Source: Actinomycetes bacterium
Lineage (GTDB): Bacteria; Actinomycetota; Aquicultoria; UBA3085; Oleimmundimicrobiaceae
Reading direction: 5' to 3'
Length of the DNA stretch: 64,000 bases
NCBI GenBank assembly: GCA_030614255.1
Contig: JAUWKI010000004.1
Span: 4-64,003 of the forward strand
Shown: piece after piece, positions 8,807-57,143 of the stretch
How the letters are laid out: each line of letters begins with the position of its first letter
Numbering within the stretch: the first letter of the stretch is position 1
Notes under the pieces: generated by a model
Database searches by the model: none
Told to the model about the DNA's origin: nothing
What the model saw: the letters and a program-made list of their open reading frames with translations, nothing else
Translations under genes and position numbers: made by a program

Positions 8807-8820
8807 ATAAAAAAATCTCC

Positions 8821-8912
8821 TTTCAGTCGATTTTAGCTACCAGCTATCAGTCGTCAGCTTCCAGGCGATACGCAATACTGCTGGCCCCTGGTGACTGGAT
8901 GCTGGGGGCTGA
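8821..8912. repeat. Interspersed repeat copy (CTACCAGCTATCAGTCGTCAGC variant) in the acsB-acsC gap
   Basis: Heptad-like CAGC-AT-CAG units matching the 1-112 and 2724-2752 modules. Confidence 0.5.
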
Positions 8913-40720: not shown

Positions 40721-41926
40721 TTACTTAGGCGGCATAAAAAGGATAAATAAAATTGCCGCCGATAAAGCCATCACACCACCGTAAATGAAAGGCGCCGACG
40801 GTCCGATGTATGTCCAAAGTAAGCCCGCAATCAAGCTGGCTGCAAATGTTACCAACCCAACCGCTGTATGATAAAGACCCAGTGCAGTGCCCCTTTTTTC
40901 CGGTTGCGCCATGTCAGTTACCAGGGCCCTGCTTACACCCTCTGTAGCTGCGATATACACACCATATACGGCAAAAAGCGGCCAGATATAGCTGGACTTA
41001 GATATAAAAGCGAGGGCAAAATAAACGCCGGAAAACACCAAAAAACCGCCGACCATAAGTCTCTTTCTTCCCACTCTGTCCGAAAGCACGCCTGCTGGAG
41101 TTGAAAAAGCTGCGTAAACCACATTGTAGAGGACATAGGCCAAAACAACCAAGGTAGCCGAAAGCCCCAGATTCTTTGCTCTAAGAATCAGAAAAGCGTC
41201 GCTGGAGTTGCCGAGCCCAAAAACAACTATGATTAAAAGGAGCGTTTTAAAATTCTTGTCAAAGCCGGCCAAGCTTAAACGCGGCGCTTCTTTCGAGCCA
41301 GAAACATGCTTTTTTTTCTCTTTCACAAAGAAAAAGAGAAGAGCAACACCTAAGACAGCCGGAAAGAAAGAAAGCAAAAAAATCAATCGATATTGTTCCT
41401 TTAAGACCACCATCAAAACCAAAGCAATTAGGGGGCCAATGACCGCACCAGTTGAATCCATCGCCCTGTGAAGACCAAACGCTTTCCCCCGATTGGCGGA
41501 GTCTGTCTCATCGGCAATTAGAGCATCCCTCGCCGAGGTTCTAACCCCTTTCCCCAAACGGTCTATAAAGCGAGCCATTAAAACCGTGGGCCAGACGAAG
41601 GCCACCCCTAAAAGAAGTTTTCCTAAGGCGGAAAGAGAATACCCTCCCAATACAAATGGTTTTCTTCTCTCAAGCTTATCCGAAAGCCAGCCGGAAAAAG
41701 TTTTTAAAATGCTCGCGGTGCTCTCCGCAAAGCCTTCAATTAAGCCGACAATTGCAACTGGCGCCCCCAAAACGCTGGTCAAGAAAATAGGAACAAGAGG
41801 ATATATCATCTCGCTGCTTATATCCGTAAAGAGGCTGACTAACCCTAGAACAAAGACATTCTTTTTTATGCCGGGAATTAAAAAATCTCTTTCTTTGTTC
41901 TCCACTTCAACTCCCCAATCACGCAT
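40721..41926 (-). CDS. MFS transporter
   Basis: 12-TM pattern. GKxxDRxGRK-like loop motifs. Confidence 0.8.
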   Translation of the reverse strand: MRDWGVEVENKERDFLIPGIKKNVFVLGLVSLFTDISSEMIYPLVPIFLTSVLGAPVAIVGLIEGFAESTASILKTFSGWLSDKLERRKPFVLGGYSLSALGKLLLGVAFVWPTVLMARFIDRLGKGVRTSARDALIADETDSANRGKAFGLHRAMDSTGAVIGPLIALVLMVVLKEQYRLIFLLSFFPAVLGVALLFFFVKEKKKHVSGSKEAPRLSLAGFDKNFKTLLLIIVVFGLGNSSDAFLILRAKNLGLSATLVVLAYVLYNVVYAAFSTPAGVLSDRVGRKRLMVGGFLVFSGVYFALAFISKSSYIWPLFAVYGVYIAATEGVSRALVTDMAQPEKRGTALGLYHTAVGLVTFAASLIAGLLWTYIGPSAPFIYGGVMALSAAILFILFMPPK

Positions 41927-42241
41927 TTAAAAAATTCTGACGAAGCAGTATCGTTGAATAAAACATTGTAATCTTTTTAAAATTATGCTATTAATTTGTC
42001 TAGCTTATTATAGAGCAACCCGAAGGTTGTAGCTTTGTAAATTAGAACTTTTTCCGAAATTAGGCCACGAAGGTCTTAACCAGCTCAAAAGCTGGATGAG
42101 ATTTTTGTGGTCTTTTTTATTTGGTAACAATTATCGAAAACTGTTTTGTTTACCAAGGAGGTGAAAATCAAAAAGCTAAATTCGGACTTAAGCTTGCAAT
42201 GTTGTTAATATAAATAAAAATCTGAAAGGAGCGCAATCTAC

Positions 42242-43942
42242 GTGAAATATAAAAAAAGATTGGTAAAAATAATCGGCATTATACTTTCTGTGGCTTTCAT
42301 CATGCCCCTTCTGAGCGGCTGTTCGGAAAAGAAGGATGTCGCAAAATTAGAATCGGTTCTATTTACCAGAACGGGAGCAGTTCTTGTTTTAAGCGAAGCG
42401 CGCGATGTCTCAGAAGTTAAAGTAGCCGACAAAAAGGTTGATTTCACTCAGCCAAACACAATGACCATACTGGCCTCCTTCGAATGGGAACCAAGTAAGA
42501 AATGCGCCATCACGATAAAATCAGAGGAAGGAGTAATAAATGAGGAGACCGTGTCCCCAAAGAAACCTTCCGCCTATAAGCTTGGGGAAGCAAAACTTGG
42601 CTCCTTAGAAAAATTTCCCCAGGTAGAAAGCTGGAAAGATGTTCCTTCCGAGGAAACAATCATTTCACCGGATGGAAAATATATCGCGATGGCAAGTTTC
42701 GACGGGAAGTTCTACGTCTTCGACAACGCCGGAAAGAAGCTCTGGAACTACCAGGTTCCCGACGGAGTCGGCAAAAAGGTTGCTTTCTCTGGCAACGGCG
42801 AGATACTTCTCGCTGGCGAAGCAAGCGCCGATGGTTATCTTTATGCTTTCAACACCAAAACCGGTGAAGAGATTTGGAAATATAAAGTATCAGATGACGT
42901 GGGAACGAGCACCGACAGCTACTGGTACTACCGCCCCATGATTTATAGTCTGACCGTTTCAGGAGATACGGCTTTCGCCGCGGGACAACTGAAACAAAAA
43001 GAAAAAAAGATGGTGGAAGACAAAGAAGTAACCGTTTACAAAACCAAGTGCTTCATCTACGCGTTTGATGTGGAATCCGGCAAAACAAAGTGGCGGTTCC
43101 CAGAAGACGAACCCATGGATACAGGCGTACCGAAGGTGGTAGCCACCCCGGATGGAAACAAGGTGATGTTCGTCAATCAGAGCTGGAACTACGGCGCTGT
43201 TCAGGAAAAATATCCTGATGGCACAATCCGTCTCTTAAACGGAGAAACCGGAAAGGAAATGGCCGCCTACAAGGTCGATGCCCTGGAGCCATACTTTAAA
43301 TTCGTGGGAATTTGGGATGGTATCTGCATCTCTCCAGACGGCAATCATTTCACGGCCATGGCAGGAGATGGAAGAGGATTTCTCTTCGACTTAACTAAAG
43401 CGAAAGAGACCAGCGAGCTCAGGCTCGTGTGGATGAAGGAAATTTCCAAGATTCAGGAGGTAAGCGGGGTTCCCATTTATGCCTATGGCAACGGCACCCA
43501 TGTGGACAATGAGGGCAACGCCGTCTTTGCCACCAGCGTCACTTACTCCGCGGATAAGACAAAATGTTCCGGTACACCGCCTGCGGTTCATCCGGACGCC
43601 ACAACCATATTTGCCTATTCCAATGAAGGGAAACTTCAGTGGAAATGGAAAGCCGAGGGGAAAATCGGTTGTCCGCTATTCTCTCAAGATAATCGATACA
43701 TGGTGGTTGGAGTGGCTCATGACTGGGTAAGTCAAAACAAAGACATGGCCGGCGTGCAGTGCTTCGACCTAACAAAAGAAGGCAACGCTAGCGACAAATT
43801 GTGCTGGTTCTATCCCGTGGAGGGCATCTGCGCCATTGCCACAATTTCAAACAACGGAGAGAGCATCGCCGCAATTGAAGCGCCAATTCAAATGGAAGAT
43901 AAGAGTATAAGTGGAAATCACAAAATCCATTTCGTTAGGTAG
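42242..43942 (+). CDS. PQQ-like beta-propeller repeat lipoprotein
   Basis: Lipobox LLSGC after signal peptide. Repeated G..Y.FD...G..LW motifs typical of PQQ/BamB-like propellers. GTG start with AAAGGAG RBS. Confidence 0.6.
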   Translation: MKYKKRLVKIIGIILSVAFIMPLLSGCSEKKDVAKLESVLFTRTGAVLVLSEARDVSEVKVADKKVDFTQPNTMTILASFEWEPSKKCAITIKSEEGVINEETVSPKKPSAYKLGEAKLGSLEKFPQVESWKDVPSEETIISPDGKYIAMASFDGKFYVFDNAGKKLWNYQVPDGVGKKVAFSGNGEILLAGEASADGYLYAFNTKTGEEIWKYKVSDDVGTSTDSYWYYRPMIYSLTVSGDTAFAAGQLKQKEKKMVEDKEVTVYKTKCFIYAFDVESGKTKWRFPEDEPMDTGVPKVVATPDGNKVMFVNQSWNYGAVQEKYPDGTIRLLNGETGKEMAAYKVDALEPYFKFVGIWDGICISPDGNHFTAMAGDGRGFLFDLTKAKETSELRLVWMKEISKIQEVSGVPIYAYGNGTHVDNEGNAVFATSVTYSADKTKCSGTPPAVHPDATTIFAYSNEGKLQWKWKAEGKIGCPLFSQDNRYMVVGVAHDWVSQNKDMAGVQCFDLTKEGNASDKLCWFYPVEGICAIATISNNGESIAAIEAPIQMEDKSISGNHKIHFVR

Positions 43943-43954
43943 TGCGACCCATTT

Positions 43955-44005
43955 TGAGAGAAGAGGAACCATCATATCCATTTCCTCTTCTCTCGATTTC
44001 TTTTA
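43955..44005 (+). terminator. Rho-independent terminator after the propeller lipoprotein gene
   Basis: 13-bp perfect stem GAGAGAAGAGGAA/TTCCTCTTCTCTC followed by a T-rich tract. Confidence 0.6.
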
Positions 44006-44026
44006 ATGTGAAAAGGTTGGAGGCTT

Positions 44027-45943
44027 GTGAGAAAACTCAAAATAATTCTCATTTTAGTTCTGGTTGTCTTTTTATTTTCGGGTTGCCAGGGTAAAGGGGA
44101 GAAAGATTTAAAAATAAAAACTGTTGAGTTTGGACACCATAGGGCCGTAATTGAGCTTTCAAGAGAAACCCCAATATCCTCGGTGAGCGTTTTTGACCAG
44201 GATGGATCGCTCATAACCACAGTCACCATTGGTTCAGAAGTTTCAAAACAAGCCATCCTCTTTTTTGATTGGGAGGAGGCTCGGCCTTACTTATTCCAAA
44301 TCAATCTCAAGAACGGAAATATGATAGAAAAAGAGGTAAAATCTCCGGCCAAGCCGACCTCCGTTGCTAAATTCTGTATTCAGGCCCCCTACGGAATGAG
44401 AGAAAGCGACGAGAGGAGCCTTGTTGCCAAAGGAAGCAAAGTCACGGCCACCGTTTTTTTAGAAAGTTACTCCGGCAATCCTCTGCAAGCAAGCGTAAAA
44501 CTGACTTTGCCAAAAGAGTTCAAGCTGGTTCGAACACCTTCAATTTTTAAGGCAAAAGAGACGAGAGAAGGTCACATCCTTACGGCCGAATGCAAACTGG
44601 TAACAGAATTTGACAATTTCAACGAATTGCTGGAATTTGAGGTGCTGTCCACTCTCGCCGAAGACATCTACAAAATCGAGGGAGAAGCCACCGTTGAAGA
44701 AATAATAAACGGCGAGCGCAAGGTCACGCAGTTCCAAAAAGAAAAAGAACTGCGCGTAATCTCTTTAAAAGAGGCGAAGAACCTGGCTCATATAGCTGGA
44801 ATCAAAGTACCCACCAATGACGAGGGAGATTTTGATTCTCGTAAGAAAGAAAATACCCTGGCCCTAAGCGTAGATGGTAACAATTTCTTAAAAAGAATCC
44901 TTGGAACCGGCAACAAAGAGATTGATTACCTCGAGCACCCCCTTGCCTTTGCCACCACCACGGTCAGGAATGAAAATCAAGATAACGTGGTCTTTCTTGT
45001 AACATCCAAAGTGCTGGACCCCAAGACAAAAAAGATAGCCCAGGCCTTTCGGGTTCCTCCCAACAAAAGCGGTGGCACAGGAGTGAGTTACGCCGTAGTT
45101 TCGGTGCCCGGGAAATCGGAAGCAAAAGCAACCCTTCCTATTTATGTCAATGAAGCTGAGGTCTTGGGGGGTAAATATATTTTGGAGAGCGAAATTAAAA
45201 TATTCGGGACAGACAAAGCCATCTCTAAAAAACAAAAAGAGATCGATGTCATCACCAGAAACCCAGTCCCCGGGCTCATCACCCTCGCCGCTTTTTTAAT
45301 CACGGTGATAGGGCTTGGATATCTTGCAATTTGTCAAAAGGCATTTTTTAAAGGATTTAAGACCAAATGGCTGGTAATAATAGCTCTTTTTGGCACGGCC
45401 ACTTTCATTACGGTCAATGTGCCCGGCACCCTCCTTTGGGACTTCCTCCATGTCATCCTGGGCCCCTTTAGCTTCTTAATCACGGGAATCTTTTATGAAA
45501 TTATTCTTTACGCTCTCATCATGTCTCTTGTGGTCCTCATTCCCAGGCCGGGAGTGGTGACCCTCGCTTTGGGTGTAAGTTTTCTTTTAGGAGGAGTGGT
45601 GCTCGGCAATTTTAGCCCCGTCACCCTCATGTGGAAAGCATCTCTGATTTTTTTGCTCGAGACCACCCTATATCTCTTTGGCGTGACCAGGAAAAACGGC
45701 ATTCTGACGGATATCGGCGCGGAAAAGAGATGGCGCGTTCTCGCCACGGCGGGAATTGCCTGCGCGTTGGCTGATACCCTTTCCGTTTACATAAATTTCG
45801 GCACCACGATATTTTTATACAGACTTTACTACGCGACCTGGTACATTCATACTTATGCGGTAATCGATGGCTTCTTATACACCCTGGTGGGCGCCTTGGT
45901 GGGAACAAGATTAGGATTCAGTTTAAGAAAAATTATAGAATAG
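44027..45943 (+). CDS. Lipoprotein with ~400-aa extracytoplasmic domain fused to a C-terminal ~6-TM domain (candidate substrate-capture S-component of the downstream ECF transporter)
   Basis: Lipobox FSGC. C-terminal ~230 aa strongly hydrophobic with about 6 helices. Immediately upstream of the EcfA/EcfT genes. Confidence 0.45.
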   Translation: MRKLKIILILVLVVFLFSGCQGKGEKDLKIKTVEFGHHRAVIELSRETPISSVSVFDQDGSLITTVTIGSEVSKQAILFFDWEEARPYLFQINLKNGNMIEKEVKSPAKPTSVAKFCIQAPYGMRESDERSLVAKGSKVTATVFLESYSGNPLQASVKLTLPKEFKLVRTPSIFKAKETREGHILTAECKLVTEFDNFNELLEFEVLSTLAEDIYKIEGEATVEEIINGERKVTQFQKEKELRVISLKEAKNLAHIAGIKVPTNDEGDFDSRKKENTLALSVDGNNFLKRILGTGNKEIDYLEHPLAFATTTVRNENQDNVVFLVTSKVLDPKTKKIAQAFRVPPNKSGGTGVSYAVVSVPGKSEAKATLPIYVNEAEVLGGKYILESEIKIFGTDKAISKKQKEIDVITRNPVPGLITLAAFLITVIGLGYLAICQKAFFKGFKTKWLVIIALFGTATFITVNVPGTLLWDFLHVILGPFSFLITGIFYEIILYALIMSLVVLIPRPGVVTLALGVSFLLGGVVLGNFSPVTLMWKASLIFLLETTLYLFGVTRKNGILTDIGAEKRWRVLATAGIACALADTLSVYINFGTTIFLYRLYYATWYIHTYAVIDGFLYTLVGALVGTRLGFSLRKIIE

Positions 45944-45952
45944 GTGTTTTAA

Positions 45953-47647
45953 ATGAGAGGTTCTTTATCCATTGACAATTTAAAATTCACATACACAGGC
46001 AGAGAAAAACCGACCATCAAAGGAATTAACTTGAGCGTTCAGCCAGGGGAGTTCGTGCTGCTTACAGGCCCCACAGGTTGTGGCAAGAGTACTTTGCTTA
46101 AAACCTTAAACGGCATCATCCCTCATCAATCAGGAGGGAAGATGGAGGGAACCGTTAAAGTAAACGGCTTGGATACCAATACCGCCGAGATGCAAGACAT
46201 TTGTAAACAAGTGGGCATGGTCTTCCAAAGCCCGGACGACCAGCTCTTTTCAACCGTCATCGAGGACGAAGTGGCCTTCGGCCTGGAAAATCTGTGCCTT
46301 GGTAAAAACGAAATAGATAGAGGCATCGACTTGGCTCTTCGGAAAGTGGGTATGAAAAACCTGCGTCAAGCTCAGATAGGCACTCTTTCGGGAGGACAAA
46401 AGCAAAGGGTGGCCATAGCATCGGTTCTGGCCATGGAGCCCCGCATCCTCGCTTTAGATGAACCCCTAAGCCAATTGGACCCCGTGGGAGCCAAAGAAGT
46501 TTTAGATGTCATAAAGCGGCTCAATGTAGAGCAAAACATCACGGTGATTTTAGTCGAGCACAGGATTCACGAGATAGCGCATATGGCCTCTCGCATCCTC
46601 GTGATGGATGAAGGGAAATTGGTTCTCGATAAGCCCACAGGAAAAGCCTTTGCCAAGCTCGAGATATTCGAAAAACTGGGCCTGAGGGTCCCTGAGCCCA
46701 TTAAACTCTTCTGCGCTCTCGGTTTCTCGGAAAGACCGTTGACAAACAAGCAAGCGATAGAGACGGTGCAAGATAGGATTGAAAACGGCTTCCTCAAAAA
46801 AATAACGAGCGTTAACCGCGATAGACTTCCCCGGAGGCTGGGAAATGAGGTCGTCTCAGCAAAAGATGTTTCTTTCTCTTATTCGAAGAAGGGAGAGTGT
46901 GTTCTTAAAAATATCGACCTAAGCATCAGGGAAGGTGAAGTAGTGGCCCTCATGGGAAGCAACGGCTCCGGCAAAACCACCCTTCTTCTTCACTTGGCGG
47001 CCATACTTAAACCGTCTTCGGGAAGGATTGAGGTATTTAACGCGGATACTTGCAAAATTAGCCCCTACTCTTTAGCAAGCCAAGTAGGGGTGGTATTCCA
47101 AAATCCGGACCTTATGCTTCTTTCTGATACCGTTTGGGGTGAAGCGATGTTTGGTCCCCAGAATCTCCACCTGGAAAAGGCGGATGAGCTAGCCAGGCAA
47201 TCTTTGGAGGCAATGTCCATCGGGAAGTTAATGACCGACTCCCCCCTTGCTTTAAGCCGGGGCCAAAGGCTTCGGACTGCCGTGGCCTCCATCATTTCGA
47301 TGCAACCGAAGTTAATTCTCTTAGACGAACCCACCACAGGACAAGACAGGATCCACATTGAAGAGATGATGGCCTACTTGATCCCAAAGGACGGGGGAAA
47401 GACCGTCGTCTTTTGCACCCACGATGTCCAAACGGCGATACGATACGCCGATACCATCTTGGTTATGGATAAGGGAGTTATAGCTCAGGGTTCGCCGGAA
47501 AGTGTCTTTGAACAGGAAGACATCTTACGCCGAGCAAACTTAAGCGCCCCCGACTCTTACCACATCGCCAAAAAACTGGGCCTTGAGTCAATCTTTATGG
47601 TAGAAGAACTGGAGGATACGCTCAAATGTTTAATACTGCCTCACTGA
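45953..47647 (+). CDS. ECF-type (CbiO-like) transporter ATPase, duplicated A1-A2 fusion
   Basis: Two Walker A motifs (GPTGCGKST, GSNGSGKTT) and two ABC signatures (LSGGQKQR, LSRGQRLR). Confidence 0.85.
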   Translation: MRGSLSIDNLKFTYTGREKPTIKGINLSVQPGEFVLLTGPTGCGKSTLLKTLNGIIPHQSGGKMEGTVKVNGLDTNTAEMQDICKQVGMVFQSPDDQLFSTVIEDEVAFGLENLCLGKNEIDRGIDLALRKVGMKNLRQAQIGTLSGGQKQRVAIASVLAMEPRILALDEPLSQLDPVGAKEVLDVIKRLNVEQNITVILVEHRIHEIAHMASRILVMDEGKLVLDKPTGKAFAKLEIFEKLGLRVPEPIKLFCALGFSERPLTNKQAIETVQDRIENGFLKKITSVNRDRLPRRLGNEVVSAKDVSFSYSKKGECVLKNIDLSIREGEVVALMGSNGSGKTTLLLHLAAILKPSSGRIEVFNADTCKISPYSLASQVGVVFQNPDLMLLSDTVWGEAMFGPQNLHLEKADELARQSLEAMSIGKLMTDSPLALSRGQRLRTAVASIISMQPKLILLDEPTTGQDRIHIEEMMAYLIPKDGGKTVVFCTHDVQTAIRYADTILVMDKGVIAQGSPESVFEQEDILRRANLSAPDSYHIAKKLGLESIFMVEELEDTLKCLILPH

Positions 47648-48519
47648 TCCAACCATCCATAAAAAAAACGTTCATCCATCGAATCGACCCCCGGGCAAAG
47701 ATAACTTTCTTGCTCTGCGCGTCGATTCTTGCGGTTAGTCTCGACAAACCGAAATCGCTCTTTATCCTATTTATGGTCGCCATTTCATCTTGCATATTCG
47801 CCAAACTGCCTTGGGACAAGGTAGGGTTGCTGGCTATCTTCGTGATTTTGGGAATGTGGGGGACGATGTTCAGTCAAGCCCTGTTCTACGCGGGACACCC
47901 CCGAACAATAATTTTCGTCCTCATCTCCTCAAAGACACCTATTTTGGGAGCCATAACCGATGGACTTTACGTCTACCGGGAGGGCTTCATCCACGGCGCC
48001 GTTCAAGCGCTGCGTTTCTCTTCGATGATTTGCCTGGGATTGCTCACATGCTGGACCACCGAGCCCCGTGATTTGCTTACAGGGTTGGTGAAGTTAAAAA
48101 TCCCTTACAATTTCGCTTTCATGACGATAACCGCTTTAAGGTTCATACCTACGGTGCTTACCGAGACCAAGACGGTGATTGCTGTGGAAAGACTGAAAGG
48201 TTTTAAACCCACCAAGGTGGGAATATTCTCTTCGCTTAAAACGGCGGTCTCCACCTTGCGCCCCATCTTGGCAAACTCCGTCCGCCGGGCAAGCACCCTG
48301 GCACTATCCATAGAGAGTAGAGCGTTTAACCCAACGGCTCCCCGAAGCCACTTGAGAGACCTCCGATATAAATTCAGCGATTTTCTAATTACGGGAGGGG
48401 CAATCTCGGGAAGTTTGGCGGTAGCCACGATTAAAATAATGTATTTGCTTTATATAAACGAGATATTTTATTCATCTTCTTTAAGACATATATATCAGTT
48501 GGCGGGAAAGGTCCTGTAA
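47626..48519 (+). CDS. ECF transporter transmembrane T component (EcfT/CbiQ family)
   Basis: Multi-TM protein overlapping the ATPase stop. CbiQ-like length and topology. Confidence 0.7.
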   Translation: MFNTASLIQPSIKKTFIHRIDPRAKITFLLCASILAVSLDKPKSLFILFMVAISSCIFAKLPWDKVGLLAIFVILGMWGTMFSQALFYAGHPRTIIFVLISSKTPILGAITDGLYVYREGFIHGAVQALRFSSMICLGLLTCWTTEPRDLLTGLVKLKIPYNFAFMTITALRFIPTVLTETKTVIAVERLKGFKPTKVGIFSSLKTAVSTLRPILANSVRRASTLALSIESRAFNPTAPRSHLRDLRYKFSDFLITGGAISGSLAVATIKIMYLLYINEIFYSSSLRHIYQLAGKVL

Positions 48520-48546
48520 AAAATAATTTGAAAGGAGAATGAGAAA

Positions 48547-50907
48547 ATGATAAAAGTGGGCTCCATCATGTGGGGAAGCCACGTTTCCACACTCGTTCAA
48601 GCAAGCAAGGAGCTCGATTTCGTACAGCTTGAGCTCCGTTCCATGCGCGACTTAGAGGATGAGCTGGTACAAGAGAAGTTTCTGGAGTATCTGCGACAAG
48701 AGGCGGATGTCCTTCTTCTCTATCCGTCCGCAAACGAAGTCTGGAGCGAGATGCTCCCCGAAATTGAAAAAATTAGAAAGGCCGTACCCACCGTCTCCTT
48801 CGGTCACGACCCCTCTTTCTGGAGTCTCTCTACCGTAGATCCCGAGACGGTGGCCACGGCCTATAAATATCTGGTAACCGACGGCTTGGAAAACATGAAA
48901 AGCCTGCTATCCTATATTGCCCGCGAGGTTCTCGATATCGAGATGGAGGTCGAGCCGCTTAAGGAAACGCCATGGCAGGGAATATATCATCCCAACGCCT
49001 CATCGCACTTTGACAACCCTGAAGATTACCTCAAATGGCACAAAAAATTCGACCCCTCCTGCCCCACCGCGGGTATCCTCTTTTATCGCTCTTACTGGAT
49101 AAACGGAAACCTCGAAGTAGAAAACGCTCTTATCCGCGCATTTGAGGATAGGAAAATTAACGTTGTGCCGGTCTTCTCCCACGGCTTTAAAGAAAATGAG
49201 CTGGGGGCCAAAGGAAATGACGTGGCGATCCCCGCTCTACTAACAAGGGATGGCGAGCCAATCGTCGACATCCTGCTCAATTTGCAATCTTTCTTTCTGG
49301 TAACCCTGCCGGAAGGCTCCGATGTCGGCTGCGCTGAGGCGGGTGTAGAACTACTTAAAAAACTGGATGTCCCGGTCATCGACCCCTTGGTTTCCTACCG
49401 CAAAACCGAAGAGGAGTGGAGAGCCGATGTTCAAGGTCTTGCCGAAAACATAGTCTGGTCGGTGGCCATGCCGGAATTTGATGGAATAATTGAGCCGCTG
49501 GTAATCGGGGTTCAAACAAGAGCAAGCGACGAGGAAACCGGGGTTACCCTCGAACGATACATGCCCATCCCGGAGCGGGTCAATCACATCGTTGAGCGGG
49601 CCAAGAAATGGATTCGCCTCCGAAGGAAACCGCCTCAAGAACGAAAGGTCGTCTTCGTTCTGCACAATAATCCATGCGCTGGTGTGGAGGCCACTGTGGG
49701 CAGCGGAGCAAACTTAGATACCTTGGAAAGCGTAGCTAAAACCATGCAAAAGATGAAGGAGCAAGGATACAAGGTCGAAAAAAACCCGTCTGAGGGGAAG
49801 AAGTTAATCGAGACCATCATGGAAAGAAAAGCCATCTCCGAATTCAGATGGACCCCTGTGGAAGAGATTGTAGCAAAAGGCGGGGCACACACCCTCCTTC
49901 CCTTGGAAAAATATCTGGTGTGGTGGAACAAGTTGCCGGAAAATGTGAGAGAGAAGATGGTCTCCACCTGGGGGGAACCGCCCGGCGAAGGGATGGTCCA
50001 CGAAGGAAAAATTGTGCTCACGGGGGTAGAATATGGAAATGTCATGGTTTGTGTCCAACCCAAACGGGGATGCTATGGGGCACGCTGCGACGGACAGGTC
50101 TGCAAGATACTCCACGATCCCGACTGTCCCCCCACTCACCAATACCTGGCCACTTACAGATATCTGGAGGATATCTGGGGAGCCGATGCCGTAGTGCACG
50201 TGGGAACCCACGGCAATTTGGAGTTTTTGCCCGGAAAGGCAGTGGGGCTTTCCGATTCTTGCTATCCCGACATAGGAATCGGCACCCTCCCCCATCTCTA
50301 CATATACAACGCCGACAATCCACCGGAGGGGACCATCGCCAAGCGAAGAAGTTACGCCACGCTGATCGACCACATGCAGACGGTGATGACCGAAAGCGGT
50401 CTCTATGAAAGTTTAAAGGAGTTGGAGGGATATCTGGCCGAATATAACCAGGCTAAAATCTCCAATCCGGCCCATGCTCACGCCCTGGAGCATCTCATCG
50501 TGGACAAAATAAAGGAGTCCAAATTAGAGAAAGAGATAGGGATCGAGGAAAAAGATATTCATGGAGAAGAATCCCTCGACAAAACCGTCAAACGGGCCCA
50601 CGAAGTTTTAACTCGCCTGAGAGAGACCCAAATTCAAGACGGCATGCACATCTTCGGGGAGCTCCCTCAAAGCGACGCCCGAGTAGAGTTCATAAACTCC
50701 ATTCTTCGTTACGACTCGGATGAAGAATTCTCTTTCCGGAAGACAATCTTTGAGCTCATGGACTTAAACTACAATTACGCCTTGAACAACCCCGCCGAAT
50801 ATTACGATGACTTCGGTAAAACCTATGGGGAGCTGCTCGAAGAGGCCCAAGGATACTCAAAGGAGTTCATTAGGGAGTTTCTCGCACACGAAGAGGAGGT
50901 AAATTAA
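48547..50907 (+). CDS. cobN: CobN-like chelatase, N-terminal portion (786 aa)
   Basis: CobN/Mg-chelatase H family motifs (HVGTHGNLEFLPGK, YIYNADNPPEG). Ends at an in-frame TAA. Confidence 0.8.
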   Translation: MIKVGSIMWGSHVSTLVQASKELDFVQLELRSMRDLEDELVQEKFLEYLRQEADVLLLYPSANEVWSEMLPEIEKIRKAVPTVSFGHDPSFWSLSTVDPETVATAYKYLVTDGLENMKSLLSYIAREVLDIEMEVEPLKETPWQGIYHPNASSHFDNPEDYLKWHKKFDPSCPTAGILFYRSYWINGNLEVENALIRAFEDRKINVVPVFSHGFKENELGAKGNDVAIPALLTRDGEPIVDILLNLQSFFLVTLPEGSDVGCAEAGVELLKKLDVPVIDPLVSYRKTEEEWRADVQGLAENIVWSVAMPEFDGIIEPLVIGVQTRASDEETGVTLERYMPIPERVNHIVERAKKWIRLRRKPPQERKVVFVLHNNPCAGVEATVGSGANLDTLESVAKTMQKMKEQGYKVEKNPSEGKKLIETIMERKAISEFRWTPVEEIVAKGGAHTLLPLEKYLVWWNKLPENVREKMVSTWGEPPGEGMVHEGKIVLTGVEYGNVMVCVQPKRGCYGARCDGQVCKILHDPDCPPTHQYLATYRYLEDIWGADAVVHVGTHGNLEFLPGKAVGLSDSCYPDIGIGTLPHLYIYNADNPPEGTIAKRRSYATLIDHMQTVMTESGLYESLKELEGYLAEYNQAKISNPAHAHALEHLIVDKIKESKLEKEIGIEEKDIHGEESLDKTVKRAHEVLTRLRETQIQDGMHIFGELPQSDARVEFINSILRYDSDEEFSFRKTIFELMDLNYNYALNNPAEYYDDFGKTYGELLEEAQGYSKEFIREFLAHEEEVN

Positions 50908-52458
50908 GTGGAAATAAAATTGGATCAGCGGTTAAAGGAGTTTGAAAACCTCGCCACAAACATCATGGGCGACAGATTCATAAATCCCGAAGCACTCGAA
51001 AAACTCTCGGTTCTAAAGTCGAAAGTTTTGGACATCTCCGCCAGGATTGAGGCCTCAAAGGAAATCGAAAGCCTGCTTCACGGACTCTCCGGCGGCTACA
51101 TCGAAAGCGGGCCCTCGGGACTTATCACCCGAGGGAGGGCAGACATCCTTCCCACCGGAAGAAATTTTTACTCTCTCGACCCTTATAAGGTTCCCACCAA
51201 GGCCGCTTGGAGGGTGGGAAGAAGCCTTGCAAACGGTTTAATTGAAAAATATGTGGCAGACACGGAAGAGATGCCCGAGAACTGCGGCATGGTGCTCTTC
51301 TGCACCGATATTATGTGGTCAGATGGCGAGGAAGTATCGCAGATTCTCTATCTTTTGGGCGTGGAGCCGAAATGGTTGAGCAACGGCCGGGTGAAGGGTT
51401 TTCGGATAATCCCTTTGGAAGAGCTCGGCCGGCCCAGAATAGACGTGACCATCCGTATCGGGGGCATAACACGAGATTGCTTCCCCAATATCATGGAGTA
51501 TCTGGACGAGGCAATAACGGCGGTTGCCTCCCTGGATGAACCCTTGGAGCTCAACTTCGTCCGCAAACACGCCCTCGAGCAACTCGACGGCTCTTTGGAC
51601 CCGCAAGCGTGGAGAGAGGCCACTTCCCGCATCTTCGGCAGTCGCCCGGGAACCTACGGCTCCGGCGTAAATCTTGCCGTCTACGCCAGCGCGTGGAAAG
51701 AGGAAGAGGACCTGGCAGATGTCTTTACTTATTGGAGCGGCTACGCCTACGGCAAGGAGATGTTTGGTAAAGAATCCCATGAAACCTTCTTCAAACAGCT
51801 CAAGTCGGTTGATTTGACTTATAATAAGACGGTAACCGACGAATATGATTTATTCGGCTGTTGCTGCTATTTCTCCTATCAAGGAGGACTGACGGCAGCG
51901 GCTAAAAATGCCTCGGGGAAAGAGGTAAAAACCTACTATGGCGACACAAGAAACCCGGCCAAGATCGAAGTAAGGGATTTGGCCGATGAAATTAGGCGCG
52001 TAGTGCGGACAAAGCTTCTCAACCCAAAATGGATCGAGGGAATGAAGCGTCACGGCTACAAAGGAGCCGGTGATATCTCCAAAAGAATAGGTAGGGTCTA
52101 CGGATGGGAAGCGACCACCGAACAGGTCGACGATTGGATATTCGACGAAATCGCCGAAACATTCGTATTAAATGAAGAGAACCGAAAGTTCTTCGAGGAA
52201 AATAACCCCTGGGCCCTGGAAGAAGTGGGTCGAAGGCTTTTGGAGGCCGAACAAAGGGACCTATGGGATGCCAATCCAGAGGTCTTGCAACAATTAAAAC
52301 AAGCTTATCTCGAAATAGAGGGTTGGATGGAAGAAAAAACCGGTGACGTCCAAGGCGAATTTCAAGGAGGAGCGGTGGATGTAATTACGATGGATGAGGT
52401 CGAAGACTGGGGAGAAAAGATGAAGAAGTTAAAGAAAAAATTGCATGGTGGAGGATAA
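50908..52458 (+). CDS. cobN: CobN-like chelatase, C-terminal portion (516 aa), same frame as the upstream ORF
   Basis: CobN C-terminal motifs (ADILPTGRNFYSLDP). GTG start 8 nt after a GGAGG RBS, directly after the TAA. Confidence 0.8.
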   Translation: MEIKLDQRLKEFENLATNIMGDRFINPEALEKLSVLKSKVLDISARIEASKEIESLLHGLSGGYIESGPSGLITRGRADILPTGRNFYSLDPYKVPTKAAWRVGRSLANGLIEKYVADTEEMPENCGMVLFCTDIMWSDGEEVSQILYLLGVEPKWLSNGRVKGFRIIPLEELGRPRIDVTIRIGGITRDCFPNIMEYLDEAITAVASLDEPLELNFVRKHALEQLDGSLDPQAWREATSRIFGSRPGTYGSGVNLAVYASAWKEEEDLADVFTYWSGYAYGKEMFGKESHETFFKQLKSVDLTYNKTVTDEYDLFGCCCYFSYQGGLTAAAKNASGKEVKTYYGDTRNPAKIEVRDLADEIRRVVRTKLLNPKWIEGMKRHGYKGAGDISKRIGRVYGWEATTEQVDDWIFDEIAETFVLNEENRKFFEENNPWALEEVGRRLLEAEQRDLWDANPEVLQQLKQAYLEIEGWMEEKTGDVQGEFQGGAVDVITMDEVEDWGEKMKKLKKKLHGGG

Positions 52459-52464
52459 GCTCAA

Positions 52465-53463
52465 TTGGATAAAATAATTGAAGCAAGAGAACTAACAAAA
52501 TACTATGATGGCAATCTGGCGGTAGATGATATCAACCTCGAAATCCCAAGAGGTGAAGCTTTTGGTTTACTCGGGCCCAACGGCGCGGGAAAGACCACCA
52601 CGGTGCTCATGCTCACCACCCTGCTCAAACAAAGCGGGGGGAAAGCATCAGTCTGTGGATTCGATATAGCAAAAGAGGCTCGCGGAGTAAGAAAACATAT
52701 AAGTTACGTGCCTCAAGGATTGGCCGTAGATGATGCTCTCACGGCGCGGGAAAGCCTGGAGCTCTTCGGCTCCCTTTACGGCATACCCCCCGCCAAACGA
52801 AAACAAAGGATGGATTACTTCCTCGAGTTCTTCGAACTTTCCATGGTTGCAGATAATCCCGCTGCCACTTACTCTGGCGGAATGAAGAGGAAGCTGGAGT
52901 TAGCTCAAGCCCTCATCCATCAACCGGAAGTCGTCTTCCTGGACGAGCCCACCATCGGTCTAGACGTCACCGCCCGCCATAAGATATGGGAATTCATCCT
53001 CAGACTAAAAGAAGAAAAGAAGGTTACCTTCTTTATCACCACCCATTACATGGACGAAGCGGCGGTGCTTTGCGACAGGGTGGCCATAATCACCAAGGGA
53101 AAAATCGTTTGCTCGGGCTCCCCAAGCACGTTATCCAGTCAAATTGGAGGAGATGTAATTAGAATACGTATAGAGAAAGAGGACGTGGAGAAAGCTTCTG
53201 AAGCGCTGGAAGGAATGGAGAAAATTAAAAGTAAAAAATGCATTAAAACGGAATTGGAACTAATAGTGGAAGAGGGCGACAAGTTCTTGCCTGAGGTCAT
53301 GCAAGTTTTAACTTCAAAGGAAATCACCATCAACTCGGTTTTGATGAAGCAAGCCGGCTTGGACGAGGTGTTCATTAAATACACGGATGATACCGAAGAG
53401 AGCCCAAGCCCCAAAGAGGCCAGAAAACACAAAAAAATTATAAGAAAGCTAATGAGAGGGTGA
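52465..53463 (+). CDS. ABC transporter ATP-binding protein (ABC-2/DrrA-like)
   Basis: GPNGAGKTT, YSGGMKRKL, Walker B VVFLDEPT. Confidence 0.85.
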   Translation: MDKIIEARELTKYYDGNLAVDDINLEIPRGEAFGLLGPNGAGKTTTVLMLTTLLKQSGGKASVCGFDIAKEARGVRKHISYVPQGLAVDDALTARESLELFGSLYGIPPAKRKQRMDYFLEFFELSMVADNPAATYSGGMKRKLELAQALIHQPEVVFLDEPTIGLDVTARHKIWEFILRLKEEKKVTFFITTHYMDEAAVLCDRVAIITKGKIVCSGSPSTLSSQIGGDVIRIRIEKEDVEKASEALEGMEKIKSKKCIKTELELIVEEGDKFLPEVMQVLTSKEITINSVLMKQAGLDEVFIKYTDDTEESPSPKEARKHKKIIRKLMRG

Positions 53464-54209
53464 TGTTGTTGTTTAATGCCTTCATAAAAATCTGTAAACG
53501 CGATATCAAGATATTATTTAGACTCAAAATAAACTTAATTGCCTCAATAGTCGGCCCCGTCGCCTGGTTGGCGGTGCTCGGCTCTTTGCCCATGTCAACA
53601 AATTCAGGAAGGTATTTGGATTATGTAACTCCCGGCATAATGGTGATGTCCGTCATGATGCCCTCACTTCAAAGCGGCTTGCTCACCTCGGCCGACAAAA
53701 TCTATGGTTATTTAAAGAAGATATTCGCAACCCCCACTCCGCGGCCGGTGATAGTCATGGGCAAAATTACGGCGGCCATGAGCAAGGGAATGATTCATCT
53801 CTCGGCCGTCCTTGCCACCGCGTGGATTCTCGGCGCGAGAATGGAAGGTGGTCTTGCTGGTCTTCTACTGGTATTTGGATGCGCCCTCTTCTTTGCCATG
53901 GGCCTCTCGGCCCTTTCAATATTTATCGCCTTCAAGGTGGCCGATTTGCACGGTTTCGGTGCAATTATAAGCTTAGTTAGCTTGCCGCTTTTCTTGGCCA
54001 GTTCGGCCCTGATGCCTTTGGACAAGATGCCGGCATGGTTGCGATGTGTGGCATCAATAAATCCGGTCACTTACATCATCGACATCTCAAGAAAAATAAT
54101 GCTCACCGGGAACATATCGGGCTGCGGTTTGATCTTATTGATTCTGATATCATTGGCCTTGAGTATGATAATCTTATGTATGCGCACCTTTGAAAAAGGT
54201 TTTGAGTAA
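53460..54209 (+). CDS. ABC-2 family transporter permease
   Basis: Six-TM hydrophobic protein overlapping the ATPase stop. Confidence 0.7.
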   Translation: MMLLFNAFIKICKRDIKILFRLKINLIASIVGPVAWLAVLGSLPMSTNSGRYLDYVTPGIMVMSVMMPSLQSGLLTSADKIYGYLKKIFATPTPRPVIVMGKITAAMSKGMIHLSAVLATAWILGARMEGGLAGLLLVFGCALFFAMGLSALSIFIAFKVADLHGFGAIISLVSLPLFLASSALMPLDKMPAWLRCVASINPVTYIIDISRKIMLTGNISGCGLILLILISLALSMIILCMRTFEKGFE

Positions 54210-54229
54210 ATAAACGAGGAGGACAATAA

Positions 54230-56245
54230 ATGAGTTGTTTAGCTGGTAAAGTATATTCCTTCACCGCAATTGTGGGACAGGACAAGATGAAAAAGGCCCT
54301 GATTTTAAATGTCATCAACCCCAAGCTCGGCGGGGTACTCATCAAGGGCCAAAAAGGAACTGCCAAATCAACCGCCGTTCGCGCTCTTGCCGACCTTTTG
54401 CCCGAAATAGAAGTGGTCGAGGGCTGCCCCTTTGGCTGTAATCCTCACACTGAAGCAGAAATGTGTCCCCACTGTCTTGAAAAAAAGCTAATTGAAGACA
54501 AACTGCCCCTCTCCCACCGGAAAATGAAGGTGGTTACCCTCCCCATCAATGCCACGGAGGATAGAGTAGTAGGAACGTTGGACATAGAGCGCGCGATAAA
54601 ACATGGCGAAAAACGTTTTGAGCCGGGGATTCTGGCGGATTCCCACCGCGGCTTCCTTTATGTTGACGAGGTGAACTTGCTCGATGACCACATAGTTGAC
54701 ATTCTGCTGGACTCCGCCGCGATGGGAGTCAACACCGTCGAGAGAGAGGGGATCTCCTTCTCACACCCCGCCCACTTTATACTGGTGGGAACGATGAACC
54801 CCGAAGAAGGAGATTTAAGGCCACAACTTTTGGACAGGTTCGCACTCTGTGTCGAAGTCGAGGGCATAAGCGATACAAAAGAAAGGGTGGAGATAATTAA
54901 GAGGCGAATGAGCTATGAAAACGACCCTCATTCCTTCGGCCATCGCTGGGAAGACACTCAAGAAAATTTGCGCCGTCAAGTCCTGGCCGCCGAAGCACTC
55001 CTGCCTAAGACAGAGATATCCGACGATATGCTGCACTTAATAGCCGAAATCTGCGTGGGGATGGACGTGCACGGACACAGAGCCGACATCGTGATGATGA
55101 AGACGGCTAAAACTATCGCCGCCTTTCATCAAAGAAGGGAAGTAACCGAGAAAGATGTGAAAGAAGCTGCTGAGCTCGCCCTGCCTCACAGGATGAAGAG
55201 AAAGCCGTTCGAGGAGCAAAAACTGGACCAAGAAAAGTTGGAGCAAACCATCGAAAAACATAAGAAAAATCGGAGCGAACCCGAGCAAGCCGAGCAAGAA
55301 CAGAAAGAACCTCAAGAATCATCACACCGTGCCTACCGACAGGCAGGAAATCAGGATGACCAAAAGGAGGCTCCGGATAATTCGTCTTCAAAAACCTTTG
55401 ATGTCGGAACCCCCTTTAAAACAAGGGATATCAAGATGCCAAAAGACAAGCTTCCTCGCACGGGTGGCGGAAGGAGGGCAAAGAGCGTTACGGGCTCGAA
55501 GTCCGGCAAATATGTTCGGAGCACCATCCCCAAAGACAAGACAACGGACATCGCCCTCGACGCAACCATAAGAGCCGCCGCCATCAGACCGTGCCTACCG
55601 GCAGGCAGGAACGGAAAAAATGAGACCGGAAAGACTGGTTTAAAAATTGAAAAACCCGATTTACGCCAGAAGGTAAGAGAAAAGAAGGTCGGCGCATCCA
55701 TCCTCTTTGTGGTCGACGCCAGCGGCTCCATGGGCGCGAAAGAGAGGATGGTGGTGGCCAAAGGAGCTGTGCTTTCGCTCCTAATCGACGCCTATCAAAG
55801 ACGGGATAAGGTCGGGCTCATAGCTTTCAGGAGAAAGAGCGCGGAGCTCTTGCTTCCATTAACAGACAGCGCTGAAACCGCCCAAAGTTATCTCAGAGAG
55901 CTTCCAACGGGAGGAAAAACCCCTTTGTCCCATGGGCTAACCCTCACGCTTGAGACATTCAATAAAGAAAGGGCCAAAAACAAAAAGGTCCTTCCTCTTA
56001 TGGTTTTAATAACCGACGGGAAAGCCAACGTTTCTTTGAGCGAGAAAAATGCAGTTGAAGAAGCCGGGGAAATCGCGGAAAAATTTGCCGAAGCAAAAAT
56101 AAAAAGCTTGATTATCGACACAGAAAACGACTTCTTGAACCTGGGGCTCGCCAAAGAAATAGCGAACGCCTGTGATGGCGAATATATAAAGCTGGAGGAG
56201 CTTGAAGCGGAGAAATTGGCTCATATGGTTAAGGAAATAAACTAG
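54230..56245 (+). CDS. ChlI/ChlD-like chelatase subunit (AAA+ ATPase fused to vWA/MIDAS domain)
   Basis: N-terminal AAA+ (GQKGTAKST). Acidic/Pro-rich linker. C-terminal vWA with DASGSM MIDAS. Confidence 0.8.
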
Positions 56246-56273: not shown

Positions 56274-57143
56274 TCAGGTCTTGTTTTTTGACATTTCTTC
56301 TTCTTTTGTGATTCTGCTTATCGTCGAATAGTGCATCTTGAGATGATTGGCAATTTCTTTCTGGCTGTAGCCATATTGCTCTGTTGCCTCCACTATCTTC
56401 TTATTTCTCATCTGTTTATTCTCCAATATTCTTTTCTTAAACAAACTTTCAAGACTTGGTCTGCCAACATATCTTTGGTGCTTAGGAATATCCTTTATTT
56501 TTTCCTGTCCTTTTAAATAACTTTTAAATTCCTCAACAAAATCATTATCGCCAAGCAGGATTTGTCCTTTTGCCTTTATCCAAATTGATTCTTCTTCTAT
56601 TCCTGCCTTAACAAACTCTCTGTATCTTTTCCTTGCCGGTTTTATCTTTGGGCCAAATTGAGCTAAAACCCAGTTTGTTGTGAGGCAGGGATGAGGTTTT
56701 TCCAAGCCGGCAGTAGCACGATAACTGCCATATCTCCATTCTTCGGGGTCTTTAACCAGCTTTGCTCTTATGGGGTTTAAGACCACGTATCTGCAGACCT
56801 CAAGAAGATGGCTTTCTTTCTGGATGAGTATGGCTTTGTATCTTCCTTGAAAGATGTGACCCACCCTGTGATGCTTTTTATTGAAGGTCTGTGTGTATAC
56901 CCCGTTTAGTTGTCTCATGCCCTTGGAGAGATTTCCATCGGGAGTTTCGATAATTAGATGGTAGTGGTTATTCATCAGACAATAAGCGTGGCAGATAAAA
57001 TTGTATTTCTTGTTTACACTTTTGAGAACGTTTAGAAAGATTTCTTGGTCTTTTTCATCATAAAATATGGGCTTCTTTTCATTGCCTCTTGATGTTATGT
57101 GATATATAGCTCCGCTGTATTCTATCCTTAAAGGTCTTGCCAT
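56274..57143 (-). mobile_element. RAYT/IS200-like Y1 transposase (HuH) with C-terminal HTH domain, flanked by imperfect inverted repeats
   Basis: NHYHLII HuH motif and RYVVLNP Tyr region. Inverted repeats GGGGTCAGGTCTT...GACAT at 56270-56294 and 57173-57197. Confidence 0.7.

Follow-up and report, generated by a model that had tools for sequence, protein, structure and literature searches.

A conserved island joining an ECF-type importer to a cysteine-rich CobN-type chelatase, a candidate nickel acquisition unit of anaerobes

In a 64,000-nucleotide stretch of contig JAUWKI010000004.1 from an Actinomycetes bacterium (hereafter the window, numbered from its first letter), a gene island at 42242–56245 is most likely a co-regulated unit for a scarce transition metal that is turned on when the metal is short. 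Nickel is the most likely metal, and the unit possibly handles nickel or cobalt. A probability of about 0.7 is given to the reading that the island serves nickel/cobalt acquisition under metal-responsive control. The open reading frame (ORF) list and the family scans of the window proteins place nine consecutive ORFs in this interval, all on the + strand. They are listed here as g1 to g9, together with the hairpin that separates the first two.

42242–43942, + strand: g1, surface lipoprotein with a pyrroloquinoline quinone (PQQ)-like β-propeller (lipobox LLSGC; PQQ_2, E 2.5e-18)
43954–43996, + strand: hairpin between g1 and g2 (15-bp stem, U-rich tail; ΔG −21.9, z −4.7)
44027–45943, + strand: g2, lipoprotein with an S-component-like membrane domain (lipobox LFSGC; 638 aa)
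45953–47647, + strand: g3, fused EcfA1–EcfA2 ATPase (TIGR04520, 452 bits, cut-off 315; TIGR04521, 430, cut-off 330)
47626–48519, + strand: g4, EcfT of the CbiQ family, transmembrane coupling component (PF02361, E 1.3e-26)
48547–50907, + strand: g5, N-terminal 786 aa of a CobN-type large subunit (PF02514 positions 1–657, E 1.7e-210)
50908–52458, + strand: g6, C-terminal 516 aa of CobN (PF02514 positions 661–1089, E 2.8e-189)
52465–53463, + strand: g7, DrrA-type ATP-binding cassette (ABC) ATPase (TIGR01188, 332.5, cut-off 312.45)
53460–54209, + strand: g8, ABC-2 permease (PF01061, ABC2_membrane, E 1.2e-26)
54230–56245, + strand: g9, fusion of a ChlI-like AAA+ and a ChlD-like von Willebrand factor A (vWA) protein (TIGR02442, 843, cut-off 779; AAA_lid_2, VWA_2)

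Gene set and its conservation

From g2 to g9 the intergenic gaps range from −22 to +27 nt, which fits a single operon. A preliminary description of this DNA had listed a PQQ-propeller lipoprotein, a lipoprotein with a C-terminal membrane domain, an EcfA1A2 fusion, an EcfT/CbiQ component, a CobN-like chelatase, an ABC-2 transporter and a ChlI/ChlD-like AAA+/vWA protein, consecutive on one strand, and each of them is present in that layout. The description is amended for the chelatase: the CobN-like protein is present and covers PF02514 end to end, but it is not one ORF, being split by an in-frame TAA followed by a GTG. In agreement with the view that the organization as a whole is undescribed, no published account of it was found in the literature searched.

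The linkage of cobN, chlID and ecfAT on which that description placed weight holds across genomes, being conserved in a Bacillota metagenome-assembled genome (MAG), a Sequence Read Archive (SRA) assembly, the cultured methanogen Methanococcoides vulcani and a TonB-bearing bacterium. HGW-Firmicutes-8 (L004; L numbers denote the loci compared) carries a propeller, a g2-like gene, EcfT, EcfAA, an unsplit CobN of 1301 aa (67% identity), ChlD and ChlI, and a second cluster just upstream holds CobN, ChlID, an ABC ATPase, an ABC-2 permease and ChlI. The SRA assembly repeats this layout, with an S-layer homology (SLH) protein and an ABC-2 pair added after ChlI, and in M. vulcani a single cluster holds orthologues of the nine genes (29–57% identity). 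The TonB-bearing bacterium (L141) shows exbB-exbD-tonB, propeller, S-component, EcfAA, EcfT, CobN, a TonB-dependent receptor and ChlID; the locus of a distant g2-family member shows propeller, S-component, EcfT, EcfAA, CobN, ChlI and ChlD. One further g2-family locus is without the link, on a contig that ends 260 nt downstream, and the full set is found at six of the seven examined loci holding a g2-family gene. The same syntenic set in unrelated lineages is more than chance would produce, and the island is very probably a conserved functional unit. These neighborhoods come from single look-ups, and the scan of the genome collection with the closest CobN returned 10 loci, too few for statistics.

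The importer is the variable part of the set. Close CobN relatives keep CobN, ChlI/D and ABC-2 while the importer type varies: in Ammonifex, Thermoanaerobacter kivui, Desulforudis audaxviator and L016, the energy-coupling factor (ECF) module is swapped for Peripla_BP_2/FecCD/ABC importers with cell-wall anchor domains. A shared core made up of cobN, chlID, an ABC ATPase and an ABC-2 permease recurs in Methanospirillum, Methanoregulaceae and the anaerobic methanotrophic archaea ANME-1, and a g7-type ABC ATPase adjoins cobN in many loci. Propeller orthologues are present in loci L004, L015, L020, L141 and L142. Several CobN paralogues occur per locus or genome, and almost none of about 12 loci has cbi/cob biosynthesis genes adjoining the cluster. 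A short CobN-like gene (385–446 aa) followed by MotA/ExbB and DUF2149 was also observed in T. kivui (L018, 15335–17404) and Ammonifex degensii (L017, 19854–22154). These genes adjoin full-length CobN and recall hmuS-hmuTUV, an odd arrangement in organisms without an outer membrane (a single-membrane state is assumed).

Leader attenuator and the identity of the metal

The leader upstream of g1 contains three elements, of which the second is the attenuator.

42008–42040, + strand: upstream leader hairpin, from folding, holding a look-alike stem-loop CAACC-CGAA-GGUUG
42057–42122, + strand: leader attenuator, GGCC-ACGAA-GGUC, whose 5′ half is the terminator 5′ arm; 3′ arm UUUGUGGUC, then UUUUUU
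42121–42156, strand not assigned: imperfect inverted repeat TTGGTAAC-N19-GTTTACCAA, between the terminator and the g1 ribosome-binding site

The terminator at 42063–42116 has a 5′ arm reading GGCCACGAAGGUC, a complementary 3′ arm and a U-run, lies upstream of a gene and folds with a ΔG of −34.2 kcal/mol (z −9.4). It is much stronger than the hairpin behind g1, which the preliminary description had taken for the sole terminator; the latter looks like a partial terminator, and g1 would accordingly be expressed more than the genes behind it. A 13-nt element, GRCC-AYGRA-GGUY, could form a small hairpin that excludes the terminator by competing for the same 5′ strand. This pattern has one match in the window against 0.00 expected by chance. 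At position 2 the window motif has G where the pattern has A, as do L023, L037, L064 and L075, and upstream hairpins similar to that at 42008–42040, with AYGAA loops, are found in 15 of 91 related leaders.

No cataloged riboswitch accounts for this leader. A B12 or NiCo riboswitch, which had been considered for 41927–42241 and 43943–44026, is absent there, and the uncataloged leader motif is present instead. Neither the cobalamin (RF00174) nor the NiCo (czcD) riboswitch is found at the Rfam gathering score in the whole window, no relevant Rfam match appears at E values up to 10 in 41800–44200 (the leader and the g1–g2 spacer), and neither riboswitch is found in seven related loci. The motif itself matches no Rfam 15 family, and no description of it was found in the literature searched. 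An identity with guanidine-II or ANTAR elements was considered and ruled out on the AYGRA pentaloop with U at position 2 and the lack of an Rfam match. A leader peptide was likewise discarded: several members have ACG for the apparent ATG, and the short ORF is therefore not conserved.

The motif is widespread and accompanies nickel and cobalt genes. A covariance model, R1, was built from 66 motif instances; it scores the window leader, a member of its training set, at 51 bits, and finds two copies in L141, outside the training set, before exbB and before the propeller gene (37 and 32 bits). Often in tandem, the motif precedes the cobN operons of HGW-Firmicutes-8 (L004), L015, L016, Ammonifex (L017) and Desulforudis (L019), and in HGW-Firmicutes-8 it also precedes a NikB/DppB-like permease. 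It was located at L004 7848–8008, L005 20534–20701, L016 2679–2753, L019 9924–9965, and L141 6237–6298 and 8193–8251, with further instances in L021–L140. A strict-pattern scan of metagenome contigs gave at least 120 matching stretches. Among the matches listed, 115 first or second genes behind 72 distinct instances were surveyed, and the commonest families among them were the following.

CbiM 7; CooT 7; OprB 6; Peripla_BP_2 6
FecCD 5; TonB-receptor Plug 5; BPD_transp_1_N 5; DUF4198 4
SBP_bac_5 3; FmdE 3; CbiQ 3; PDGLE 3; CobW/HypB 2

The HypB proteins score above the NCBIfam curated cut-off, the family-5 binding proteins best match NikA, and the long CbiM proteins are CbiM-N fusions. The terminator stem covaries, with one pair found as UA in 32 cases, CG in 31, UG in 3 and unpaired in none; the small hairpin is 97.7% paired, though the search pattern fixed much of its sequence. 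That the motif is shared with nickel-uptake and nickel-enzyme maturation genes supports nickel control of the island. The regulatory evidence leans toward nickel over cobalt, and the motif is a candidate nickel (or nickel/cobalt) responsive attenuator and a candidate new class of cis-regulatory RNA.

Several further features of these leaders were observed. The inverted repeat at 42121–42156 may be an operator, judged from its sequence. It was compared with the published NikR half-sites GTAACAC/GTGTTAC (PMC545781) and rejected as a NikR operator; the half-sites are NikR-like, but their spacing is wrong and the match to GTGTTAC-N13/14-GTAACAC, or its reverse, is poor. At least 10 of 89 distinct leaders (among them L059, L061, L071, L077, L085, L092, L102, L113 and L130) carry a conserved promoter-like element, GCAGGAAT-N11-TGTAGAAT, 36–80 nt before the motif; it has only 16 matches in 1.6 Mb (both strands of about 0.8 Mb of loci). 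Its spacing is too short for a standard −35/−10 pair, and the first box may therefore be bound by a regulator. In L141 a 98-aa fragment of the LarC-type Ni_insertion family is encoded at 5800–6096, just before the attenuator and the exbB-tonB-CobN island. Directly behind the motif in L038, L050, L085, L089, L092, L099 and L115 are CooT-family genes of 63–79 aa that start MCE(A/S)NAY. CooT binds nickel via Cys2, and the family has long been annotated as a predicted RNA-binding protein. CooT could be an autoregulated trans factor of the attenuator; no homologue was found in the window or the first 20 loci.

The names given to the island chelatase point to another metal and another task. As an ordinary ATP-dependent cobaltochelatase, CobN with ChlID (in place of CobST) would insert Co2+ into a corrin precursor, allowing B12 synthesis without CbiK/CbiX, and the ECF system would import cobalt. 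In agreement with this reading, NF004646 names both halves CobN (970 and 860 bits, the cut-off for the whole protein being 1468), g9 exceeds the cut-off of TIGR02442, "putative cobaltochelatase", CbiZ is encoded near the paralogous cluster of L004, and the host needs corrinoid for the corrinoid iron–sulfur protein (CFeSP) encoded in the window. The same proposal has been made for Chlorobium and for Thermacetogenium phaeum, which is without a class II cobalt chelatase (PMC3551663), and cobalt importers are common inside cbi operons (PMC7689651). However, no cobalamin riboswitch is present at any cobN operon examined, cbi/cob biosynthesis genes almost never adjoin the cluster, the importer is without CbiM or CbiN, and the leader motif is common to the nickel genes HypB, CooT and NikA-like. 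In addition, the clade is without the aerobic CobN His and Asp motif (described below), several paralogues occur per genome, and the ABC-2 pump and the surface propellers are given no role. This reading is possible but doubtful, and it stands as a serious rival.

Importer, chelatase and the direction of metal transfer

The lipoprotein g1 consists of an N-terminal domain of about 90 aa followed by the PQQ-like β-propeller. The N-terminal domain, which begins right after the lipobox, is homologous to that of g2 (34% identity, E 2e-10; 42242–42580 and 44027–44370), and this shared domain may be a common docking or stalk module. In g2, extracellular β-sandwich domains and one extra transmembrane helix are followed by a six-helix domain resembling an ECF S-component (residues about 446–637), which is the best-conserved part of the protein. 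No match to g2 was found in Pfam, NCBIfam or the PDB sequences. A word-indexed search with g2 gave 4 clusters and an exhaustive profile search gave 421 representatives; most of these are 500–700 aa long, so that fusion to extracellular domains is the norm in the family. With ThiT, BioY and PanT as the S-components named for comparison, the modeled membrane domain is predicted to have the six-helix S-component fold and to be the missing part of the importer, from a new family. EcfA and EcfT are both present (g3 and g4), and g1 and g2 together with EcfT and EcfA1A2 form a dedicated ECF-type importer. The earlier label of a Cbi/Nik-like importer needs revision: there is no CbiM or NikM, and the S-component is of a new family fused to extracellular β-sandwich domains. 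CbiM, PDGLE and DUF4198 have no match in any island protein in Pfam or NCBIfam.

The large chelatase subunit is encoded by g5 and g6, which jointly span the PF02514 profile (1090 positions) and place the protein in the CobN/ChlH family; g5 carries the HxGTHG motif of the superfamily. The two genes are in the same frame, with TAA at 50905–50907, a restart GTG at 50908 and a GGAGG 8 nt upstream (window 50893–50910). The split is also present in a second, non-identical and slightly diverged assembly (L002), so it is not a read error; selenocysteine or pyrrolysine recoding of the stop was ruled out, the codon being TAA. It could be a sign that a horizontally acquired island is decaying, with the stop having inactivated the chelatase and the cluster lying idle in this host. 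An in-frame TAA in cobN, an adjoining IS200 transposase, an island G+C content unlike that of the flanks, and the finding that all 119 full-length relatives examined are unsplit are in line with such decay. Against it, both halves are intact, without more stops or frameshifts; the break (position 781) sits in a host-specific insertion between domains that is absent from 117 of the 119 full-length relatives; the GGAGG before the GTG is a consensus site; the split is kept in two diverged assemblies; and the remaining island genes are all intact. Decay is judged very improbable.

More than 1100 relatives match the merged CobN at E < 1e-100. Those at 55–67% identity come from Bacillota, Desulfobacterota, Kuenenia, ANME archaea and methanogens, and the named ones are all called cobaltochelatase. 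Cys377, Cys509, Cys514, Cys519, Cys572 and Cys1104–Cys1106 (merged numbering) are invariant or nearly so in 120 clade members. On the window these cysteines lie at about 49675 (377), 50050–50103 (502–519), about 50260 (572) and 51859–51867 (1104–1106). The C-x4-C-x4-C arrangement, with Cys377 or Cys572, is a possible Fe–S or second metal site. In the active-site segment, the island reads E-Y-D-L-F-G-C-C-C-Y where solved CobN reads E-H-D-(L/I)-x-D-S-D-D-Y: a Cys-Cys-Cys triplet, kept in 114–120 of 120 clade members, replaces Ser-Asp-Asp of aerobic CobN, and Tyr replaces the His of the E-H-D segment. Thiolates suit nickel. The protein belongs to a large, distinct, cysteine-rich CobN clade of strict anaerobes and archaea. 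The partners CobS and CobT are absent from the island, and the ChlID fusion stands as their substitute; by its domains, g9 is the motor subunit of a class I chelatase. CobN (g5 and g6) and ChlID (g9) form a cytoplasmic, ATP-driven class I chelatase of this clade, an architecture that, as had been pointed out, stands in a strict-anaerobe context with Wood–Ljungdahl genes in the window. The adjoining g7 and g8 provide the ATPase and the ABC2_membrane permease of a DrrAB-type ABC-2 system.

HmuS is a member of the superfamily that works as a de-chelatase. Sequences of solved structures place the merged CobN about equally far from ChlH and CobN and further from HmuS. The Cys triplet appears to align with Leu-Asp-His of HmuS (His-1209), on the register of PMC12583661 and with no gap assumed, and His-1209 binds a cation in the active-site cleft (PMC12583661). 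The HmuS motif LSLDHxxEFMGG (His-1209, Glu-1212) is replaced by LFGCCCYFSYQGG in the island. The head domain carrying the HmuS heme site (Met-79, His-254) does not align; the HmuS match spans g5 residues 267–642 only. No HmuY, HmuT, HmuU or HmuV homologue is found in the island by Pfam scan, and no hydrophobic terminal helices were noticed on reading the g5 and g6 translations, for which no prediction was run. Membership in HmuS was ruled out by motif, anchoring and similarity. A Gram-positive or archaeal counterpart of hmu, importing heme and removing its iron, was considered in this light. HmuS is homologous to the island CobN, Methanosarcina barkeri CobN-like proteins change with iron and sulfur source (PMC10846266), and the short CobN-like genes with MotA/ExbB and DUF2149 in T. 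kivui and Ammonifex recall hmuSTUV. Yet of the solved relatives HmuS is the least similar (167 and 206 bits, compared with 265 and 374 for ChlH and CobN), no membrane anchor is seen by eye in the CobN translation, LSLDHxxEFMGG is not conserved, HmuS works independently of ATP and ChlID, and the genes linked by the motif are nickel/cobalt genes, not iron genes. A heme-iron role is very unlikely.

The preferred reading of nickel/cobalt acquisition can be extended to a mechanism. The surface lipoprotein, S-component and EcfT/EcfA1A2 would import the metal bound in a macrocycle or strong chelate, not as the free ion; CobN–ChlID would spend ATP to strip the imported ligand of its metal, running chelation backwards as HmuS does with heme iron; the ABC-2 pump would expel or recycle the metal-free ligand; and freed nickel would feed CO dehydrogenase/acetyl-CoA synthase (CODH/ACS) and hydrogenases. 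Chelate uptake, as opposed to the uptake of free ions, typically involves TonB-dependent receptors, BtuF/FecB-type binding proteins and large surface proteins. A complexed substrate is suggested because the importers are chelate-type or TonB-dependent, the surface proteins are elaborate and the CobN paralogues are multiple; such multiplicity is easier to reconcile with scavenging a range of substrates than with a single biosynthetic step. Removal is preferred as the direction because of the analogy with HmuS. The combination of chelate import and ATP-driven stripping is nevertheless held tentatively, at somewhat less than even odds, because the AAA+ motor is tied to insertion and chelatases are commonly found beside importers of their metal. 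By published proteomics, Methanothermobacter marburgensis makes a CobN homologue in high amounts only under nickel limitation (PMC12350162).

A more speculative form of this mechanism, considered rather unlikely, is that anaerobes and methanogens pirate nickel: an environmental nickel macrocycle or nickelophore, for example an F430-derived corphinoid, would be captured, imported through the new ECF S-component, BtuCD-type or TonB-dependent systems and stripped by the cysteine-lined CobN–ChlID, with the ligand pumped out and a new nickel-responsive attenuator in control. The attenuator sensor, also new, would be either the RNA or a protein, for example CooT.

The same motor suggests the opposite direction to one further reading. 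A high-affinity, ATP-driven nickel chelatase would, under nickel shortage, insert imported Ni2+ into a tetrapyrrole: sirohydrochlorin for F430 in archaea, backing up the class II CfbA, and a nickel tetrapyrrole or carrier in bacteria. The ChlID motor implies insertion, the active site is Cys-Cys-Cys, the leader is of the nickel-regulon type, and many clade members come from F430 users (such as ANME-1, Methanoperedens, Methanosarcinales and Methanospirillum). Induction of CobN1 by nickel limitation in a methanogen (PMC12350162) agrees with it, and the idea was raised for Methanothermobacter in 2011 (PMC3087415). However, CfbA is the established F430 nickel chelatase (PMC8179277), and the chelate-type importers and the ABC-2 pump are left unexplained. 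Moreover, the clade is as common in bacteria without F430 (Ammonifex, Desulfofundulus, Thermoanaerobacter kivui, Desulforudis and this actinobacterium); no nickel tetrapyrrole is known in them. Nickel insertion, with either set of targets, is considered unlikely.

A number of points weigh against nickel acquisition by chelate import and stripping. HmuS needs neither ATP nor ChlID, and an AAA+ motor is the mark of chelatases that insert metal and not of its removal. In B12 operons a chelatase is regularly found beside the transporter that brings in its metal, and synteny by itself therefore does not require the substrate to be a chelate. Not every ABC-2 system exports; NosDFY is a mechanotransducer. 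The genes behind the motif include CbiM, BtuF/BtuC-like and TonB-receptor genes, and some motif loci adjoin operons under a cobalamin riboswitch, of which the motif is in no case a part; these observations keep cobalt in consideration. Most motif instances were gathered with a pattern fixing much of the sequence. Between the two CobN clusters of L004 (5579–7505) are genes for a CN_hydrolase and CbiZ, an adenosylcobinamide amidohydrolase of corrinoid salvage; CbiZ is the sole cob/cbi-related gene seen near any cluster. The g2 model is of modest quality (predicted local distance difference test score, pLDDT, 62.7; predicted template modeling score, pTM, 0.39), and the cobN split could be a recent inactivation.

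Host context, significance and relation to known systems

The G+C content of the island is 0.49–0.51 against 0.42–0.45 in the flanks, being about 5–7 points higher within 46000–56000, and the island is oriented opposite to the local gene direction. One neighboring feature marks its downstream edge, as context and not as a component.

56274–57143, − strand: IS200-like Y1 transposase (PF01797, E 2.8e-14)

The nearest relatives of g2 are from Methanosarcinales MAGs and one Bacillota MAG. The transposase, the raised G+C content and these foreign relatives suggest that the island was acquired horizontally. The 90% cluster of g2 includes a protein of Candidatus Oleimmundimicrobium sp., an anaerobic member of the Actinomycetota to which the host is closely related. 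Wood–Ljungdahl genes elsewhere in the window encode formyltetrahydrofolate synthetase (FTHFS), RACo, a CooC-like protein, FolD, a CFeSP subunit, CODH and formate dehydrogenase. The proximity of the CODH/ACS genes, once held to be suggestive, is weak evidence: they lie more than 20 kb away and on the other strand, separated from the island by a G+C step, with an IS200-type transposase next to it. With dnaX, recR, asd and pyruvate:ferredoxin oxidoreductase (PFOR) genes in between and signs of mobility in the island, this proximity was judged incidental. No cob/cbi genes are among the 29 annotated window ORFs; the ORFs of 1–11100 and some others were unscanned. Elsewhere in the window (27351–29129, − strand), a protein combining an Fe-only hydrogenase large-subunit-like domain, an Fe–S motif and a C-terminal GGDEF diguanylate cyclase adjoins a LytTR two-component pair; it may be a redox or H2 sensor.

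The components of the island each belong to known protein superfamilies. The novelty lies in the leader RNA, the active site peculiar to the clade, the S-component family and the conserved way in which the parts are combined. Strict anaerobes and archaea abound in CobN-like proteins, often with more than one copy, and annotation routinely labels these proteins cobaltochelatase. The island ties one large CobN clade to conserved transport machinery, a cysteine-lined active site and a regulatory element of nickel-uptake genes, and this orphan family thereby gains a testable function, with M. vulcani, A. degensii and D. audaxviator as cultured carriers. CODH/ACS, hydrogenases and methyl-coenzyme M reductase are limited by nickel; a new way of acquiring it, if true, would thus have consequences for acetogenesis, methanogenesis and anaerobic methane oxidation. 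Two parts have value separately: the leader motif as a candidate new class of metal-responsive cis-regulatory RNA, and g2 as the definition of a new S-component family with a built-in extracellular domain. The function of CobN-like proteins in strict anaerobes and archaea was called unclear in the 2025 HmuS paper (PMC12583661).

The leader motif resembles the ANTAR dual-hairpin sites and the LicT/SacY ribonucleic antiterminator (RAT) elements in having a short conserved hairpin that shares its 5′ strand with an intrinsic terminator, and, as with other terminator-overlapping hairpins (ANTAR, RAT and guanidine-II), a second look-alike hairpin is often found upstream. Its A-Y-G-R-A loop recalls the tandem ACGR hairpins of guanidine-II (mini-ykkC). 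It fits none of these elements: the pentaloop accepts U at position 2, and the associated genes serve nickel/cobalt uptake instead of nitrogen, sugar or guanidine functions.

The importer shares with CbiMNQO and NikMNQO (with the accessory NikK and NikL) its own EcfT of the CbiQ family and EcfA beside an S-component, extracytoplasmic accessory proteins and a metal-uptake context. It differs in that the S-component is not CbiM/NikM, is without the MHxxDG N-terminus and belongs to the new family of 421 representatives; it is fused to a lipid-anchored β-sandwich stack, the ATPases are fused and the partner is a β-propeller.

The chelatase shares with CobNST and ChlH/ChlI/ChlD the end-to-end PF02514 match, HxGTHG and a partner with AAA+ and vWA domains. 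Unlike those proteins, the island CobN is of a separate clade with invariant cysteines, Cys-Cys-Cys and Tyr for His, and is split in two; it lies outside cob/cbi and chlorophyll genes, is always transporter-linked and stands behind a leader of the nickel-regulon type. The hmu operon of Bacteroidota likewise encodes a CobN-superfamily protein with metal-macrocycle uptake, with TonB-dependent parts in the diderm versions, and HmuS is the precedent for the superfamily acting in the removal direction (PMC12583661). HmuS is membrane-anchored, NADH-dependent and independent of ATP and ChlID, with its own heme-binding head and a His/Glu motif, whereas the island CobN has lower sequence similarity and stands in a regulatory context of nickel/cobalt, not of iron or heme.

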